A stretch of 64,000 bases of DNA, taken from the IMG/VR virus record IMGVR_UViG_3300027764_000001, positions 1,302 to 65,301 of that record. One strand, 5' to 3'. The notes below the pieces were generated by a model. That model was not told the origin of the DNA and ran no database searches. It saw nothing but the letters and a program-made list of their open reading frames with translations. Below are positions 37,624-54,721 of this stretch, one piece after another (position 1 is the first letter of the stretch; the number at the start of each line of letters is the position of its first letter). The position numbers and the translations under genes are program-made. The DNA comes from a virus. Taxonomy: Duplodnaviria; Caudoviricetes.

Positions 37624-38442
37624 TTATAAAGTTGATTTTAAATGTTCGTTTATTTTTTTAACAAATGTTCCATTAACCATTTCGCCTTGTCTTGATTTAA
37701 TTACATCATAAGCTGATACAACACAATCTTCTACTTTTAATCCTTCTAACGCAGCTAAATTAGTTAATACAACCATCATGTCGCCAATAGCATCAATAAA
37801 TTCTGCTCTATCATTTTTAAGAATAGCTCTAGCTAATTCACCAGCTTCTTCTTGTAACTTAGCGAACTGAGTTTTAGTATCACCAGATTTGTATATACCA
37901 CGATCATCTGCCCATTGCCTAATTAAATCATACACATTAGGAGTTTCACTACTTTCGTCTAAACAAGATGTATCTTGCTGTTTTAAAAACTCACTCATTG
38001 CTTTATTGTATACATAACACCTAGAAGGATTATACATAGACGTTTTAGCGTTTTTAACAATCCAGTCAGCTAATGCATAAGTTAAACCGTGTTTACCAAA
38101 ATAAGTTTCTATCTCCATACCAATGTTGTCCATTAGATTACCTTTCAACTTGTTAATTGGAAAAGGAAATGTTGTTGTTTGTTCTGTTACGTTTAATACC
38201 ATTTGATTTAATTTTTTAGTTTTTCTACTAGTTATTAATTGTTTATAAGATTGCCTATCTACTTTGTAACCATAGACAAGTTGAAGTTCTAATTCTTTTT
38301 CAGATATATAATCTATATCATCGCTAGAGTCTAGAACTTCATATTCGCCACAAGCATAACCTTGTTGTCTTGTTAACCTATCCTTAAGATCACACGTTAC
38401 GCCGATCTTTTTACCAAAAATGTGATATAAATAATACGTCAT
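37624..38442 (-). CDS. mazG: fusion: N-terminal GIY-YIG-like domain + C-terminal MazG-like NTP pyrophosphohydrolase
   Basis: YYLYHIFGKKIGVT..RL at the N-terminus; QWADDRGI..KLQEEAGEL..DAIGDMMVVL at the C-terminus. Confidence 0.65.
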   Translation of the reverse strand: MTYYLYHIFGKKIGVTCDLKDRLTRQQGYACGEYEVLDSSDDIDYISEKELELQLVYGYKVDRQSYKQLITSRKTKKLNQMVLNVTEQTTTFPFPINKLKGNLMDNIGMEIETYFGKHGLTYALADWIVKNAKTSMYNPSRCYVYNKAMSEFLKQQDTSCLDESSETPNVYDLIRQWADDRGIYKSGDTKTQFAKLQEEAGELARAILKNDRAEFIDAIGDMMVVLTNLAALEGLKVEDCVVSAYDVIKSRQGEMVNGTFVKKINEHLKSTL

Positions 38443-38625: not shown

Positions 38626-38828
38626 TTGTCTTGTTTTTTATCATTAAAAGTTTGTTTATATTCTATAATAAATCCTATAGCTACTATTATATTCATTCCT
38701 AACGATGCTATTATCTCATGTATATCTTTATATATGTTTGTAGTTAAATGTATATGACCAACCATCCAAAATGGTATTGATAGATTATTAGCAATCCAAG
38801 TTATTGTAAACGTTAAAAACTGTTTCAC
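38604..38828 (-). CDS. small membrane protein
   Basis: 74 aa with hydrophobic stretches; overlaps the stop of the thymidylate-synthase-family gene. Confidence 0.55.
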   Translation of the reverse strand: MKQFLTFTITWIANNLSIPFWMVGHIHLTTNIYKDIHEIIASLGMNIIVAIGFIIEYKQTFNDKKQDKCKKVKQ

Positions 38829-39463
38829 TGTTTATCGTTGTATAAATGTAAGTTGTGTGCAAAGTGATAGTATGTACCAACTTCTAATTGTAGAACTTCA
38901 GCAACATCTTTTTGTAACATTGAAAAACAGAATTGATCGTTACAGAAACCGTACCAGAGATCATTAGAACGCATTAGAACAGACATATTTAATTTTCCGT
39001 CTAAGATTGTGAATTGAACTGCGTACGTGCAAGGAGTGTCATTAGAATACGTATCTATTTCTTTACCGTCATATATAGACAATGTTGCTTTTCTAGTGTT
39101 TGGATTATCTTGTAACATCTTTACAACTTTGCCTAATTGATCGTTTCTTCGCCATTGCCAACCGTAATTAGATCTAACGTTACCATCTTCGTCCATCATT
39201 TTTTTCCACATTGGTGCATACTTAGATATTTCGACACCAGAAGGATCACCAGATAGGTACCATTGCCATTCTCTCATTGCATAAGTAGGATTCCATTTTC
39301 TTTCAGCAAATTGTATATGGTTATCTTCAGGATTTTGAATTTCAAAACCAACATTAAATAAAGCTTTAGTATTATCAAAACCAATACCGTCTTGCCTTAT
39401 TTTATCTAGAAAATAAACAAATGCTTCATCAGCGTTTTTAAAACTATTTCTTGTATTTTTCAT
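38825..39463 (-). CDS. thymidylate synthase family enzyme, dCMP-hydroxymethylase-like (Asp-type)
   Basis: SNYGWQW, NPNTRKA, DTPCT (catalytic Cys), MRSNDLWYGFCND, HNLHLY; likely start MKNTRN at 39463. Confidence 0.8.
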   Translation of the reverse strand: MKNTRNSFKNADEAFVYFLDKIRQDGIGFDNTKALFNVGFEIQNPEDNHIQFAERKWNPTYAMREWQWYLSGDPSGVEISKYAPMWKKMMDEDGNVRSNYGWQWRRNDQLGKVVKMLQDNPNTRKATLSIYDGKEIDTYSNDTPCTYAVQFTILDGKLNMSVLMRSNDLWYGFCNDQFCFSMLQKDVAEVLQLEVGTYYHFAHNLHLYNDKQ

Positions 39464-39698
39464 AATAGTAAATATAAAATTCATACATTTTTTTCCATAT
39501 ATCCATTTTTTTATAAGACTCAGGACTAACACTTATTTTTTTATTCATTTCAATGCATATATACCATTCTAGAGTTGATTTTGCTAATGGAGATATATAT
39601 ATACCGTTTTTAATGCACCAATCTCTTGCTTCTTTTTCTTTAGTAGAATATAAGTAGTTACCCATGTCTATAACAACTCTTTTTGCCATTATTCCCAA
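39444..39698 (-). CDS. hypothetical protein
   Basis: 84 aa ORF coupled to neighbours. Confidence 0.6.
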   Translation of the reverse strand: MGIMAKRVVIDMGNYLYSTKEKEARDWCIKNGIYISPLAKSTLEWYICIEMNKKISVSPESYKKMDIWKKMYEFYIYYYEKYKK

Positions 39699-43280: not shown

Positions 43281-44063
43281 TTACATGAAGTCAATTACTT
43301 GTGACGAGTCGACGTTAGCTATTAATTTTGAAATAGCAAACTTTTTTAATTCTGAAACCCTTACATAAGCACTTGGACCTTTGAAGTCTAAAATTTCTGC
43401 AATTGCATTTGCTGAATGCTTATCACAGTCTAAACCATAACTAAGTCTTAATACATTTGCTTCAACATCTGTTAAATGTTTCTTAAATATACTAAGTAAA
43501 TAAGCGTTTAGTAAATCTATATTATATTCAGTTGATTTGTCTTCATATTGATACATACCTTTTTCTGAATTAGGATAGAAATCTGAAGAGTCAGCGTCGT
43601 TAAAACCAATGTCTATACTTTTAAATATACTATTAAAAAACATTTCAAGTATCTGTTTGTCTTCAGGATTTTTACGTATTTCATTTATTTTATATTCAGG
43701 GATTCTCATTGTCCCTCTATATACATTTATCGCATATCTAATGCGTCCTTTAATACGTTTAGATAGAAATGATTTGATTGTCTGTTCTTGGTTCTCAGAT
43801 GTGTTTATTTTATCCCAGTCTATTTTATCTACTGACATTATTAATCCTATACTACCTTCTTGTATTAAGTCATTTATATCTAAAATACCAGAAGCTTGGT
43901 CTGCAGTTGAAAACTTTTTAGCTATATTTTCTACTAATGGAAGGAACATGTTTATTAGATCATCTCTTGAATACTCATTGTATTGCTTTTGTTCTAATCT
44001 ACCAATAGTCTTTTTTACATCATTTTTATATATTAGATGGTTTTGTAAGTTATACTTTTTCAT
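43281..44063 (-). CDS. phage RNA polymerase sigma-70 family factor
   Basis: Region 2 LPLVENIAKKF..DLIQEGSIGLIMSVDK; region 4 HTH LTDVEANVLRLSYGL..IAEIL..RVSELKKFAISKL. Confidence 0.88.
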   Translation of the reverse strand: MKKYNLQNHLIYKNDVKKTIGRLEQKQYNEYSRDDLINMFLPLVENIAKKFSTADQASGILDINDLIQEGSIGLIMSVDKIDWDKINTSENQEQTIKSFLSKRIKGRIRYAINVYRGTMRIPEYKINEIRKNPEDKQILEMFFNSIFKSIDIGFNDADSSDFYPNSEKGMYQYEDKSTEYNIDLLNAYLLSIFKKHLTDVEANVLRLSYGLDCDKHSANAIAEILDFKGPSAYVRVSELKKFAISKLIANVDSSQVIDFM

Positions 44064-45544: not shown

Positions 45545-45578
45545 GATATTATCTACAAACTTTTCTGTTAAGTCCGTG
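45545..45578 (-). promoter_or_regulatory. early promoter motif copy 1
   Basis: Minus strand CACGGACTTA-N15-GATAATATC, 22 nt before the ATG at 45523. Confidence 0.75.
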
Positions 45579-51392: not shown

Positions 51393-51575
51393 TTAAGGGT
51401 TGTTATATACTAATTCTAATATTTCTTCTAATATAATACTGCGCTCGTAATTAGAATTCCAACTACACTGAGTGTAAATGTATTCTGATATCTCTCTGAC
51501 TATCTGGTCTCTGCTTCCGCCGCATTTGACGAAAGCTTTGAAACCATCGATAGCATCATTAACCTGCTGGCTCAT
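51393..51575 (-). CDS. hypothetical protein
   Basis: 60 aa ORF. Confidence 0.55.
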   Translation of the reverse strand: MSQQVNDAIDGFKAFVKCGGSRDQIVREISEYIYTQCSWNSNYERSIILEEILELVYNNP

Positions 51576-51576
51576 A

Positions 51577-51783
51577 TTACCAACCAGTGTTTAAATCATC
51601 TTTTAATATAAAAGTCCAACCTTTGTGGTTAAACCATGAAGTTAAACCATCTTGCTCTTTATCTTCGTTATAAATGAAGGCAAATCTTGCTGGTAAATTA
51701 CCAATTAAAAAACCACGGTATTCTCTTTTGTTTAACCAGATAGTTGAACCTCTTCTTTTGTAAGTTTGAACTGTTGTTGACAT
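51577..51783 (-). CDS. hypothetical protein
   Basis: 68 aa ORF downstream of promoter copy 3. Confidence 0.6.
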   Translation of the reverse strand: MSTTVQTYKRRGSTIWLNKREYRGFLIGNLPARFAFIYNEDKEQDGLTSWFNHKGWTFILKDDLNTGW

Positions 51784-51825
51784 AGTAAATAGGTATTAAA
51801 GATTAATATTAAATTTAATTTCGAA

Positions 51826-51860
51826 TATATTATCTGACTTGTTTATTATTAAGTTCGTGA
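51826..51860 (-). promoter_or_regulatory. early promoter motif copy 3 (variant)
   Basis: Minus strand TCACGAACTTA-N15-GATAATATA. Confidence 0.7.
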
Positions 51861-52106
51861 AGATATTATAAATGTACTTACATAACAATCTTCTTCTTCA
51901 TTATACTCATCGGTATTATCAGGGTATTCATCTAATAATTCACCGTATATATTATCTTTGAAAGACTCCAAAGTATGGTGTATTATTAATAAATGAACTG
52001 GTACTTCATCACCACTAGGATCTTGCCAGTAACCAGGTTCCATGTTAAATTCTTTTAGACCATTCATGGTTGATACTACTTTCGCTAATAGATTAAAATC
52101 TCGCAT
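51849..52106 (-). CDS. hypothetical acidic protein
   Basis: 85 aa, D/E-rich C-terminus. Confidence 0.55.
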   Translation of the reverse strand: MRDFNLLAKVVSTMNGLKEFNMEPGYWQDPSGDEVPVHLLIIHHTLESFKDNIYGELLDEYPDNTDEYNEEEDCYVSTFIISSRT

Positions 52107-52225
52107 AGTTTAAGGTGTTAAAATGTTTATTAGATAAAAATGGTTAGGAGGTATATTACTACATCTCTATGAGTCTTATAACACTTTTTAAATAATTTAC
52201 ACTTGGTTGGTTGATTAATTTCATA

Positions 52226-52260
52226 TATATTATCTGAAGTGAAACAAAATAAGTCCGTGA
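52226..52260 (-). promoter_or_regulatory. early promoter motif copy 4
   Basis: Minus strand TCACGGACTTA-N15-GATAATATA. Confidence 0.8.
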
Positions 52261-52322
52261 AGTGTATAGCAAAAGCTACTAAACAGGAAATAATGGCACA
52301 ACAAAGCAGTTAATTTAAAAAC

Positions 52323-52368
52323 TGTGACATTAGGGTATTATATTATATAGTAACAGGCTATTGTCACA
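52323..52368. promoter_or_regulatory. 46-bp inverted-repeat site B (candidate origin/operator)
   Basis: TGTGACATTAG-N24(AT-rich)-CTATTGTCACA, same as site A. Confidence 0.75.
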
Positions 52369-52401
52369 CTTTTGTAGTGTATATTTTCACTAAAAAAAGA
52401 T

Positions 52402-52427
52402 AAAAAAAAGACCACCGAAGTGGCCTT
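52402..52427 (-). terminator. Rho-independent terminator
   Basis: Minus strand AAGGCCAC-TTCG-GTGGTC-TTTTTTTT. Confidence 0.85.
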
Positions 52428-52436
52428 CTTCAATAA

Positions 52437-52730
52437 TTATACCAATGTTGGTAAATTTCTTACAAAGACTGGTAAATCTTTCGAGTTAGTATAACTACCA
52501 TACTTGTCGAAGCAAGGCATTAAGTCGAATTTTGCTCGTAAAGCATTATAAACTAAGTCGTGGTTATAGACTTTTAACTCATTCTTATGATTAGTAAAAC
52601 TAATTATAGTATTACTACCAATTAATGACTTACGAATAACAAACCTTTTAGTAGTTAGTTGATTTGTAGTTGAAACTACTGCAGGAGCTGCCACTGGCGC
52701 TACAACTGCACTTGATTTTTTTACTGACAT
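52437..52730 (-). CDS. early protein paralogue 1 of 3 (TTKRFVIRKSLIG family)
   Basis: Shares blocks LTTKRFVIR.SLIG.NT, Y.HD.VY, MPCF.KYGSYTN, LP.FVR.L with 53159 and 53704. Confidence 0.85.
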   Translation of the reverse strand: MSVKKSSAVVAPVAAPAVVSTTNQLTTKRFVIRKSLIGSNTIISFTNHKNELKVYNHDLVYNALRAKFDLMPCFDKYGSYTNSKDLPVFVRNLPTLV

Positions 52731-52774
52731 AGTATATAAAATTAAAATTATAAAGATTATTATTAATCTTCGTA

Positions 52775-52809
52775 TATATTATCAATAATAAAATGTCGTA
52801 AGTCCGTGA
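52775..52809 (-). promoter_or_regulatory. early promoter motif copy 5
   Basis: Minus strand TCACGGACTTA-N15-GATAATATA. Confidence 0.8.
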
Positions 52810-52931
52810 AGTGCTATACATAATCGACCTTAATACTATAAGTAGCGATTAAAGTCAGCTCTGCCTGCCCATTCCACAGTTAAGTAGAGTAAAAGCTACT
52901 ATTTCTAGCAGCTTATTTAGTGACTATGTTG

Positions 52932-53105
52932 TTATAACTCTGTAAATTCTATTAAACTGTTATCAGAGTTAGATATTGTAGCATCAAATGATACTGTTAT
53001 AACTCTCACTAGTACATCATCTTCATATATGAATGTATTTGTACCATCTGTGTATTCTGTGTACACTGTGCCAGATTCTTTGCTGACTGCTTTAAGTAAT
53101 TTCAT
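52932..53105 (-). CDS. small acidic protein (57 aa, not in the ORF track)
   Basis: Hand-translated MKLLKAVSKESGTVYTEYTDGTNTFIYEDDVLVRVITVSFDATISNSDNSLIEFTEL. Confidence 0.55.
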   Translation of the reverse strand: MKLLKAVSKESGTVYTEYTDGTNTFIYEDDVLVRVITVSFDATISNSDNSLIEFTEL

Positions 53106-53158
53106 AAGATATAATTTAAGATTAATAAGCAGTTTATTGACTTGCTTAGGTCATTTTA

Positions 53159-53395
53159 TTAGACTATTTCTTTTAAGTTTCTAACAAATAGTGGTAGATT
53201 GTTAGTATTAGTATAACTACCATACTTATTAAAACAAGGCATACTTTCAAACTTATCTTTTAGTTGATTGTAGACTTTGTCATGGTCATAAGTCATTACT
53301 ACATTTTTGTTGTTAGTAAATGATACTACTGTGTTTGTACCAATTAGACTTCTTCTAATTACAAATCTTTTTGTTGTTAATTCTACTTTAGACAT
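53159..53395 (-). CDS. early protein paralogue 2 of 3
   Basis: Same conserved blocks as 52437-52730. Confidence 0.85.
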   Translation of the reverse strand: MSKVELTTKRFVIRRSLIGTNTVVSFTNNKNVVMTYDHDKVYNQLKDKFESMPCFNKYGSYTNTNNLPLFVRNLKEIV

Positions 53396-53437
53396 AATAT
53401 ATAAATTAAATTATAAAGATTAAAATTAATCTTCATA

Positions 53438-53471
53438 TATATTATCTTAATAAAAAACTTGTAAGTCCGTG
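53438..53471 (-). promoter_or_regulatory. early promoter motif copy 6
   Basis: Minus strand CACGGACTTA-N15-GATAATATA. Confidence 0.8.
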
Positions 53472-53494
53472 TGGTTGCTATACATATTGATGCT

Positions 53495-53520
53495 AAAAAA
53501 AGACCACATATAGTGGCCTT
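53495..53520 (-). terminator. Rho-independent terminator
   Basis: Minus strand AAGGCCAC-tatat-GTGGTC-TTTTTTT; same stem as 52402. Confidence 0.8.
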
Positions 53521-53539
53521 ATTTAATTGTTATGATATG

Positions 53540-53641
53540 TTACACTGACATCATGAATTGTAATGCGAAGTATACTCCGATGTATAATGAAAGTACTATT
53601 AGTGGTTTGATCTGTTGTAATGTGTTAGATAAATGTCTCAT
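53540..53641 (-). CDS. small membrane peptide (33 aa)
   Basis: Hand-translated MRHLSNTLQQIKPLIVLSLYIGVYFALQFMMSV. Confidence 0.45.
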   Translation of the reverse strand: MRHLSNTLQQIKPLIVLSLYIGVYFALQFMMSV

Positions 53642-53703
53642 GATTATATGATTTAGTTAGATTAATAAAATAAGCAGTTTAACGATTTGCTTAGATCGAT
53701 TCA

Positions 53704-53970
53704 TTATACTATTTCTTTTAAAGCTCTTACGAACGCTGGCAGATTATTAGTATTAGTATAACTACCGTATTTAGCGAAGCATGGCATTGCATCAAACTTA
53801 GCTTTTAACTGATCATATACTTTATCATGATTATAAGTACATTCAATACTTTTATTATTCATGAATGTAATTACTGTATTCGTACCGATTAATGATTTTC
53901 TGATTACGAATCTTTTAGTAGTCAATACTACTTGTGGTGCTGCTGCTGCAACTGCTGTTGATTTTGACAT
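53704..53970 (-). CDS. early protein paralogue 3 of 3
   Basis: Same conserved blocks as 52437-52730. Confidence 0.85.
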   Translation of the reverse strand: MSKSTAVAAAAPQVVLTTKRFVIRKSLIGTNTVITFMNNKSIECTYNHDKVYDQLKAKFDAMPCFAKYGSYTNTNNLPAFVRALKEIV

Positions 53971-54013
53971 AGTTTATTATATTAAATTATAAAGATCTTA
54001 ATTAATCTTCATA

Positions 54014-54048
54014 TATATTATCAACATCATATTGTAGTAAATCCGTGA
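54014..54048 (-). promoter_or_regulatory. early promoter motif copy 7 (degenerate tandem copy 8 at 54051-54083)
   Basis: Minus strand TCACGGATTTA-N15-GATAATATA; upstream CACGGAGTTA-N15-GATGTTAT. Confidence 0.75.
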
Positions 54049-54382
54049 ACATAACATCTTATTAAGATCGTAGTAACTCCGTGCGAGTGCTATACATACG
54101 CATAAGGTAAAAGCTAAATCCTATTACGACATCACGCGCGTATGACTCACATCATCAACCTAAAGGTTAAAAAGTTGGGGGACCCGGCAATTTGAAAAGC
54201 GTTTTCCTTTTCGAAAATAAAAGTAGAAGCCAGGTAGTAACACTCAAATTCTCCTCATCTCATCAAATTCACCCAGGCCCTTAAAAATTTTTTTAATATT
54301 TTTTTTTCTTATACCTCATTGGGTACAATACTTTACATTTAAGGGCATAATATACCTGATTTGGTATAATGTAAATATTTAC

Positions 54383-54398
54383 TTTTTCGTGTGATTAG
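54383..54398 (+). promoter_or_regulatory. putative late promoter motif
   Basis: TTTTTCGTGTGATTAG before the first + strand gene. Confidence 0.35.
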
Positions 54399-54430
54399 AA
54401 AGAGTATATATCACTCGTTAAAAATAGACT

Positions 54431-54721
54431 ATGGCATTTCAATTAAGGAGTCAATCTTTAGAAAATCAATCACCTTTATTAAAGCAGAAACTTTCTCCAA
54501 AAGCGGCTAAGGCCAAAGCTGAGAGAGATCTTGCCTATGCTAAAACTGATGATAGACGAAAGAAGAAAGCGCACTCACAAAGAATGCACCGCAAATACCC
54601 TAATGGTAAAGGTAAGGATTGGGATCATGAAGACGGTAGGTTTGAATCTGTTAAACAGAATAGAGGTAACGAAGGAGAAGGAACAAAGAAAGAAAGTGGT
54701 AAAAGATATAAAGTAAAGTAA
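54431..54721 (+). CDS. basic protein with a degenerate HNH-like C-terminus
   Basis: GKDWDH...SVKQNRG; SPLLKQ motif. Confidence 0.55.
   Translation: MAFQLRSQSLENQSPLLKQKLSPKAAKAKAERDLAYAKTDDRRKKKAHSQRMHRKYPNGKGKDWDHEDGRFESVKQNRGNEGEGTKKESGKRYKVK

Follow-up and report, generated by a model that had tools for sequence, protein, structure and literature searches.

A repeated small basic protein of a freshwater flavobacterial phage, encoded in insulated units with 5′ stem-loops, shares a predicted new domain with cellular HEPN and uracil-DNA glycosylase-fold proteins

Phages with hydroxymethylated pyrimidines make abundant proteins that act on modified or unmodified DNA, among them TF1 of SPO1, which has the HU fold, and the T4-type proteins. 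Stem-loops at the extreme 5′ end, of the kind found in the ompA 5′ untranslated region (UTR), shield bacterial mRNAs from 5′-end-dependent decay. Protein p6 of phi29 is a histone-like early protein that organises and coats the phage genome (PMC10899789), and on the host side glycosylases with the uracil-DNA glycosylase (UDG) fold are proven defences against base-modified phages (PMC11078745; bioRxiv 10.1101/2025.10.29.685425). Here we analysed a stretch of 64,000 nucleotides (the window), which covers bases 1302-65301 of the 65.3-kb virus record IMGVR_UViG_3300027764_000001 of the IMG/VR database, a record with direct terminal repeats, and in which a small basic protein is encoded three times in succession on the minus strand. 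We found that each gene forms a unit with its own promoter and 5′ stem-loop and that the domain which makes up most of the protein also occurs at the C-terminus of cellular proteins with a Swt1-type HEPN or a UDG-fold domain, which is new here. The family probably takes part in phage-host conflict over nucleic acids. Our leading but tentative reading, held at somewhat below even confidence, is that it is an abundant early nucleic-acid-targeting protein which most likely coats DNA and may shield the phage genome. The large terminase (TerL) puts the phage near the Elemovirus, Baltivirus, Callevirus and Gundelvirus phages of Flavobacteriia, and the source labels of the runs that contain window DNA are freshwater, lake, river or runoff metagenomes; it is an uncultured freshwater flavobacterial phage. 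The clade is very common in freshwater and other aquatic metagenomes, with at least 600 TerL relatives. The first, and probably most strongly expressed, product of a common phage clade has no known relative or fold.

The three genes, all on the minus strand, are paralogue A (53704-53970; 88 aa, pI 9.70), with a short Ala-rich N-terminal tail, paralogue B (53159-53395; 78 aa, pI 9.72), with no such tail, and paralogue C (52437-52730; 97 aa, pI 9.94), with a long Ala/Val/Pro-rich one. The tails, of about 12, 0 and 25 residues in A, B and C, are the main difference between the copies. They precede a core of about 75 residues, for which the alignment of the three has 49 invariant columns and a pairwise identity of 63-74%; the family profile matches each paralogue at an E value of 1e-49 to 1e-56. 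A preliminary description of this DNA, made from its letters, had listed three diverged paralogues of 97, 78 and 88 aa with the shared blocks TTKRFVIR.SLIG.NT, Y.HD.VY, MPCF.KYGSYTN and LP.FVR.L, and both the open reading frames (ORFs) and all of the blocks are found in our alignment. It had also argued that a basic protein is unlikely to be an Ocr-type DNA mimic, which agrees with the count of 12-13 K+R residues against 5-6 D+E. It may be noted that the proteins resemble Ocr, Tad1/Tad2 and Acb2 in being small, presumably early and of a kind needed in stoichiometric excess, but they are basic (pI 9.70-9.94) where Ocr is acidic, and no fold or sequence match to any of these proteins was found.

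Searches of Pfam-A, PHROGs v4, NCBIfam and PADLOC gave no match above threshold for the three paralogues (best PHROG E 0.017), and PDB sequences searched with an 85-sequence family profile gave none either. An AlphaFold2 model built on these 85 sequences has a pLDDT of 84.9, and about 91 over the core; in it four beta-strands lead to three short helices and then to one more strand and a final helix. With this confident model as query, no significant fold match was obtained in the PDB by Foldseek (best E 1.7) or in BFVD (best E 0.53), the wide search of VIA-align gave a best Z of 3.5 (D212 nuclease, 69 residues, root-mean-square deviation (rmsd) 4.1), and the ESM Atlas gave no usable match. Neither phi29 p6 nor the HU fold was among the PDB sequence and fold matches. 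Residues R20, F21, G29, Y46, H48, D49, C64, Y68, Y71, T72 and P78 are invariant in the phage forms. By its model the family appears to be a new alpha/beta domain of roughly 72 residues. The preliminary description had not recognised the family and had named structure prediction with Foldseek as a check and a known housekeeping family as a result that would speak against it; no such family was found in Pfam, PHROG, NCBIfam, PADLOC, PDB or BFVD.

Upstream of each copy lies a bipartite promoter of the form CACGGA(C/T)TTA-N15-GATAATATAT, so that each of the three does stand behind a promoter of its own as had been described. The promoter of unit A (54013-54047, minus strand) consists of CACGGATTTA at 54038-54047, a 15-nt spacer and GATAATATAT at 54013-54022, and is preceded at 54074-54095 (minus) by a degenerate second upstream box, CACGGAGTTA, with the motif GTATAGCA before it. 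In unit B the GTATAGCA motif and promoter span 53437-53483 (minus; CACGGACTTA at 53462-53471 and GATAATATAT at 53437-53446), and in unit C they span 52774-52819 (minus; CACGGACTTA at 52799-52808 and GATAATATAT at 52774-52783). The first box, a 10-mer, has 9 sites in the window against 1.9 expected, all on the minus strand, and in 7 of these the second box follows at the fixed distance. Among relatives nearly every family copy has its own promoter, in which the GATAATATA box is invariant and the upstream box varies by lineage. Two units end in an intrinsic terminator with the matching GGCCAC/GTGGTC stem that had been reported, namely unit A at 53500-53520 (minus; AAGGCCAC-UAUAU-GUGGUCUU followed by U7) and unit C at 52404-52431 (minus; GAAGAAGGCCAC-UUCG-GUGGUCUUUUUU, -15 kcal/mol, z -4.7). 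Both terminators, GGCCAC/GUGGUC in the RNA, are strong and insulate the units. Several insulated units, each with its own promoter and 5′ stem-loop, suggest that the small basic protein is made at once and in quantity.

Directly past the second box all three copies have a hairpin of the form AAGAUUA...UAAUCUU, with 8-10 base pairs and a minimum free energy (MFE) of -5.0 to -7.2 kcal/mol: 9 bp and -6.5 kcal/mol in unit A (53989-54012), 10 bp and -7.2 kcal/mol in unit B (53413-53436), and 8 bp and -5.0 kcal/mol in unit C (52752-52771), all on the minus strand. With these energies and z values of -1.5 to -2.5 each hairpin is weak by itself. The neighbouring promoters of the same class at 52250 and 51850 have no hairpin. 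In the closer relatives a hairpin occurs at the same site past the GATAAT box with at least 8 different stem sequences (for example AAGAUUA/UAAUCUU, AAGGUUA/UAACCUU, AAGUUUA/UAAACUU, GUAAGC/GCUUAC, GAGCU/AGCUC and UCGGCCAU/AUGGUCGA), and hairpins with an MFE of -4 or lower follow 34 of 104 family promoters as against 24 of 265 other GATAAT matches; more distant relatives have no hairpin past the promoter. On aligning 24 of these sequences (alignment A5), 19 cells of the 10-pair helix were changed on both sides versus 8.4 in shuffles (0/500), and the covariation score was 0.304 versus 0.170, falling to 0.04-0.12 when the register was slid. Only rows with an MFE of -4 or lower had been taken, which inflates the percent paired and not the compensatory changes at fixed columns. 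Also, RNAalifold gave no consensus for this alignment and one stem class lies in another register, and the pairs were therefore counted on the named structure. G.U pairs are frequent in the stem, and pair 17-30, for instance, is AU in 9 sequences, UA in 5, GU in 4, GC in 3 and CG in 1. As the stem sequence changes in relatives while the pairing stays, with G.U pairs among the changes, the hairpin is read from these alignments as an RNA 5′ stem-loop kept by compensatory change. The preliminary description had pointed out a conserved 5′-UTR hairpin, AAGAT(TA)..(TA)ATCTT, in each unit, and it is indeed present after all three promoters, with its pairing kept in relatives.

A palindrome that adjoins a promoter could instead be a DNA element, that is, an operator or a hairpin promoter of the N4 type, and the window does have a giant ORF of 3,232 aa like those of N4-like phages. 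But G.U pairs, which would be G.T in DNA, are common, and the stems differ between copies, which is expected neither of a DNA hairpin nor of a sequence-specific operator; the hairpin also lies downstream of a complete two-box promoter, which occurs without a hairpin as well, and the giant ORF has no match in PHROG, virion RNA polymerases included. We consider a DNA element highly improbable, and the G.U pairs and the unmatched giant ORF led us to give up the notion that the phage is N4-like and uses hairpin promoters. If initiation takes place about 7 nt past GATAAT, the stem would be at the very 5′ end of the transcript. This is the arrangement of the ompA-type stabilising stem-loops, a short stem-loop at or a few nucleotides from the (here predicted) 5′ end with an unstructured AU-rich leader next to it, and it is the structure and not the sequence that is conserved here; it differs in that the hairpin is found only in closer relatives and that the 5′ end is a predicted one. 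The unit design, with its own promoter, covarying 5′ stem-loop and own terminator, amounts to a compact natural expression cassette for Bacteroidota, in which expression signals are poorly characterised.

The family genes had been called early, with the copies at the extreme upstream end of the early region. The position holds in the window and in all 78 related loci, and the timing is read from this position alone. The leftward arm also has a gene for a phage sigma factor (43281-44063, minus; Pfam Sigma70_r2, phrog_351 at E 2.7e-15). As a promoter of the same class lies upstream of it at 45569, these promoters may be early or later ones. The 78 loci were taken from IMG/VR as the survey sample for the family, which comprises 6,644 clusters at 90% identity, nearly all of 75-100 aa, and 438 clusters at 50% identity. 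In 78 of 78 the family genes are on one strand, which is also that of the long ORFs downstream, while the long ORFs upstream run the other way; the orientations thus place the family block always first beside the divergent junction. The number of copies is 1-4, and in the 38 loci that extend 2.5 kb or more to each side we found one copy in 13, two in 17, three in 6 and four in 2, so that the family is not single-copy and invariant, an outcome which had been named as speaking against the preliminary description. Searching 50,697 phage records with blastn and tblastn gave no family match, and the profile has no match in five cultured relatives (Elemovirus, phi19:3, phi38:1, Gundel and MW202828). 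Another 11 partial contigs with TerL (45-77% complete) are without the family, but these contigs stop short of the region. In cells the domain is rare, being found in 1 of 401 sampled Flavobacteriaceae genomes and, by a pattern scan, in one species genome.

Between the paralogues of the window the synonymous divergence (dS) is saturated and the ratio of non-synonymous to synonymous divergence (dN/dS) is 0.05-0.15; for positional orthologues in other genomes the ratio is 0.07-0.33. Eight related genomes have middle copies that the tree puts outside a supported clade (95/95) of first and last copies, and more distant genomes have duplications of their own. In the related genomes the last copy is always long-tailed and the middle copy tail-less. 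Saturated dS, low dN/dS and positional orthologues together argue that the triplication is old and that all copies are functional and of distinct types. Judged by these comparisons, the evolution of the copies does not follow a fast-evolving arms-race pattern. It had been suggested that retained, strongly expressed copies point to an anti-defence family. That idea is plausible, with indirect support from the cellular fusions, which tie the domain to conflict systems, and not from the copy pattern; purifying selection and ancient positional orthologues are no less in keeping with a conserved core function, such as nucleic-acid binding, than with an arms-race inhibitor.

The fusions came from the profile search, which also yields longer proteins that carry the domain at the C-terminus. 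Their genomic context was read for the flavobacterium Robertkochia sediminum (L082) and one metagenome contig (L189). In the Robertkochia protein (P0262/P0271, WP_203057532.1), which NCBI names a Swt1 family HEPN protein, the domain follows an N-terminal Swt1-type HEPN (PF18731, 31.7 bits against a cutoff of 27.5) with the R-x4-H motif present as EARNMVAH. The gene (L082 6714-8735) is divergent from an adjoining gene for a WYL-WCX regulator, and the genes around it have no Pfam or PADLOC match; the locus is possibly a defence island or what remains of a prophage. A GH25 lysozyme gene is located 2 kb from it. In P0228, P0190 and P0274 the domain is preceded by an N-terminal module of about 255 aa which also occurs alone. 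Its model (pLDDT 89) has the UDG fold, with a Foldseek probability of 0.99-1.0 (E 8e-4) and a VIA Z of 11.5 over 174 residues of a 192-residue family-4 UDG chain (rmsd 3.6), the top VIA matches being all UDG, UdgX, SMUG1 or TDG. By eye only, GLNPS and H-T-D-x-C-S-P resemble UDG motifs A and B. The gene of one such fusion (L189 7836-8954) adjoins genes for a tyrosine integrase and surface repeats. P0228/P0274 thus compares with Brig1/Brig2 in its UDG fold and in adjoining an integrase, as many Brig2 homologues do; it differs in that these have not been reported with this C-terminal domain, and the likeness is one of fold and concerns the fusion partner, not the phage protein. The UDG-fold family at large (P0298-P0315) has no Pfam match and is found alone or with various C-terminal extensions; on the basis of the model we take its members as candidates for defence glycosylases of the Brig kind. 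In P0192 the domain is preceded by a CxxC..H..CxxCH region which is HNH-like by eye only, with no Pfam support even at E 10. P0232/P0249 have a transmembrane segment and a stretch like the C-terminal part of GreA/GreB (E 1e-3, below cutoff). P0228 and P0192 were not found in viral contigs, and four more long-protein matches on contigs of about 1 kb were discarded as they look chimeric or frameshifted. Because of the fusions to Swt1-HEPN and UDG-fold domains in island-like contexts we regard the domain as tied to conflict systems. These HEPN and UDG-fold fusions in host islands offer a concrete and testable route to the function. They may also point to a targeting domain of defence enzymes in bacteria that is new, with a phage counter-measure to match.

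The domain is all but confined to phages (6,644 clusters against 1 of 401 Flavobacteriaceae genomes), which looks like host capture, and its fusion partners are effector-type domains in island contexts. Together with genes that are first in the arm, multi-copy and predicted to be strongly expressed, this would suit a protein-targeting anti-defence factor or decoy, in which the free domain binds homotypically to the domain-bearing HEPN, UDG and HNH-like effectors and blocks them, or else a bait, the host effectors carrying the domain to sense the abundant phage protein and then fire. But selection is strongly purifying, the paralogues are ancient and no rapid diversification is seen; the fused forms are also very rare, hence unlikely as the chief reason why all relatives found have kept the block, and no known anti-defence family is matched. 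We hold this explanation to be unlikely, though it deserves to be weighed. A host-takeover factor, which would bind a conserved host machine (RNA polymerase, nucleoid or ribosome) stoichiometrically and redirect it to the phage, agrees with the place of the genes at the head of the arm and their high-expression design, with a conserved core that suggests a conserved target, with the non-host promoters and own sigma factor of the phage, and with the weak GreA/GreB-like stretch in two fused forms. These GreA-like matches are below threshold, however, no known phage protein that binds RNA polymerase is resembled, and the HEPN and UDG-fold fusions are left unexplained, which makes a takeover factor rather improbable.

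Effectors of CBASS and type III CRISPR systems also have the architecture of an effector with a small C-terminal domain, and HEPN, HNH-like or transmembrane partners joined to the present domain run parallel to it. The domain could then sense an immune signalling nucleotide for host effectors, and the free phage copies would soak up the signal as a sponge, like Tad1/Tad2 and Acb2. High dosage is what a sponge needs, and a pocket for the ligand could have the invariant aromatic, His and Asp residues in its walls. Against this, there is no cyclase or other signal-producing gene beside the Robertkochia HEPN-domain gene, a UDG-fold partner is not a known signal-activated effector, and the fold is unlike known sponges or sensors; we give a sponge very little credence.

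Nucleic-acid targeting is favoured since the cellular partners of the domain all act on nucleic acids. As we see it, the leftward arm of the phage, with the genes of replication and nucleotide metabolism, would yield the domain first and abundantly, the high output coming from several gene copies, each with a phage-specific promoter, and from insulating terminators, and the 5′-terminal RNA stem-loop would probably stabilise the message. The domain would target nucleic acid, most likely DNA, and the free basic phage proteins would coat it stoichiometrically, probably on the phage's own, presumably cytosine-modified, genome; such a coat would organise the genome and shield it from host enzymes that find their target by the same domain. 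That the domain is made early and abundantly, that it binds nucleic acid and has a shielding role, and that the DNA is modified are all inferences. By analogy the proposed role is that of phi29 p6, which is likewise a small (about 10-12 kDa) early and apparently abundant phage protein; but p6 has a single gene, and no sequence or fold similarity to the family was found. The likeness to SPO1 TF1 and the T4-type proteins lies in a cytosine-hydroxymethylase-like enzyme of the present clade, while the HU fold of TF1 is unmatched by the family model and the modification is here a presumed one. The enzyme is a ThyA-family protein (38825-39532, minus) whose best match is the CMP 5-hydroxymethylase MilA (E 7e-24), as compared with E 1e-14 to 1e-17 for thymidylate synthases. 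Its RSNDLWYGFCND motif is conserved across the clade (19 relatives), with the final Asp aligned to an Asp of MilA. Of 20 near-complete genomes with the family, 19 have the gene, which the five cultured relatives without the family lack. Going by these homologies the cytosine of the phage DNA may be modified. The ThyA-family gene has a MazG-like gene (37624-38442) next to it.

Several points weigh against DNA coating. No nucleic-acid-binding fold or motif was recognised, and the fold matches nothing in PDB, VIA-align or BFVD searches. The residues invariant across the phage and fused forms (F, Y-x-H-D, C, Y, Y-T and P) include none that is basic, the fused forms lack the basic KR..RK patch of their phage counterparts, and the invariant residues could equally fit a pocket for a small ligand or a protein. 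HEPN is an RNase, so the fusion partners disagree on DNA as the target. A protein made only after injection cannot protect the incoming genome at entry, and timing and abundance are themselves deduced. Also the co-occurrence with the hydroxymethylase is confounded by phylogeny, two clades being contrasted, and one genome (G432) has the family without the hydroxymethylase-like enzyme. A narrower version would make the domain a reader of cytosine-modified phage DNA that is used by both sides: hosts would fuse it to a UDG-fold glycosylase, an HNH-like nuclease or a HEPN RNase and so aim these at infecting genomes, and the free phage copies, in three tail variants, would flood the cell and occupy the same sites, thereby shielding the phage DNA. 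We judge this version unlikely as it stands; if true, it would mean a new fold and a counter-defence by competitive shielding in abundant freshwater and marine flavobacterial phages.

The units contain further small features. Inside unit A an ORF of 33 aa (53540-53641, minus), hydrophobic and kept in the closest relatives, follows paralogue A, and inside unit B there is an acidic ORF of 57 aa (52932-53105, minus; pI 4.1) that is kept in close relatives. Contigs of a lake metatranscriptome cover 51947-52198 (an 85-aa ORF with its leader) and 52940-53140 (the 57-aa ORF) with 4-5 differences each, and no contig of this one run, in which DNA carry-over is possible, covers the family genes. Joints in RNA contigs seen at 85% likeness have short sides and are probably from relatives. 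Weak 3′ hairpins, TAAGCA..TGCTTA, are located 10 nt past the stop of paralogue A (53671-53693, minus) and of paralogue B (53126-53148, minus). The two match each other, are imperfect (TAAGCA-N11-TGCTTA) and lack a U-tract; processing sites and weak attenuators are conceivable readings. For window positions 51500-54500 the contigs of three independent freshwater or lake metagenomes are just 0.1-1.2 kb long, and the same runs contain contigs of 43-75 kb; many IMG/VR contigs also terminate 0-500 bp from the family block. The repeated units probably break assemblies here. Lastly, the octamer GTATAGCA/TGCTATAC has 13 sites at window positions 31950-54095 (for example 52264-52271 and 52812-52819) versus 2.4 expected. 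Ten of the 13, many of which are within genes, have TGCTATAC(AC) on the minus strand, the transcribed one, and the remaining 3 are in the opposite orientation just upstream of the family promoters. In relatives the motif is also found before family promoters, in either orientation.

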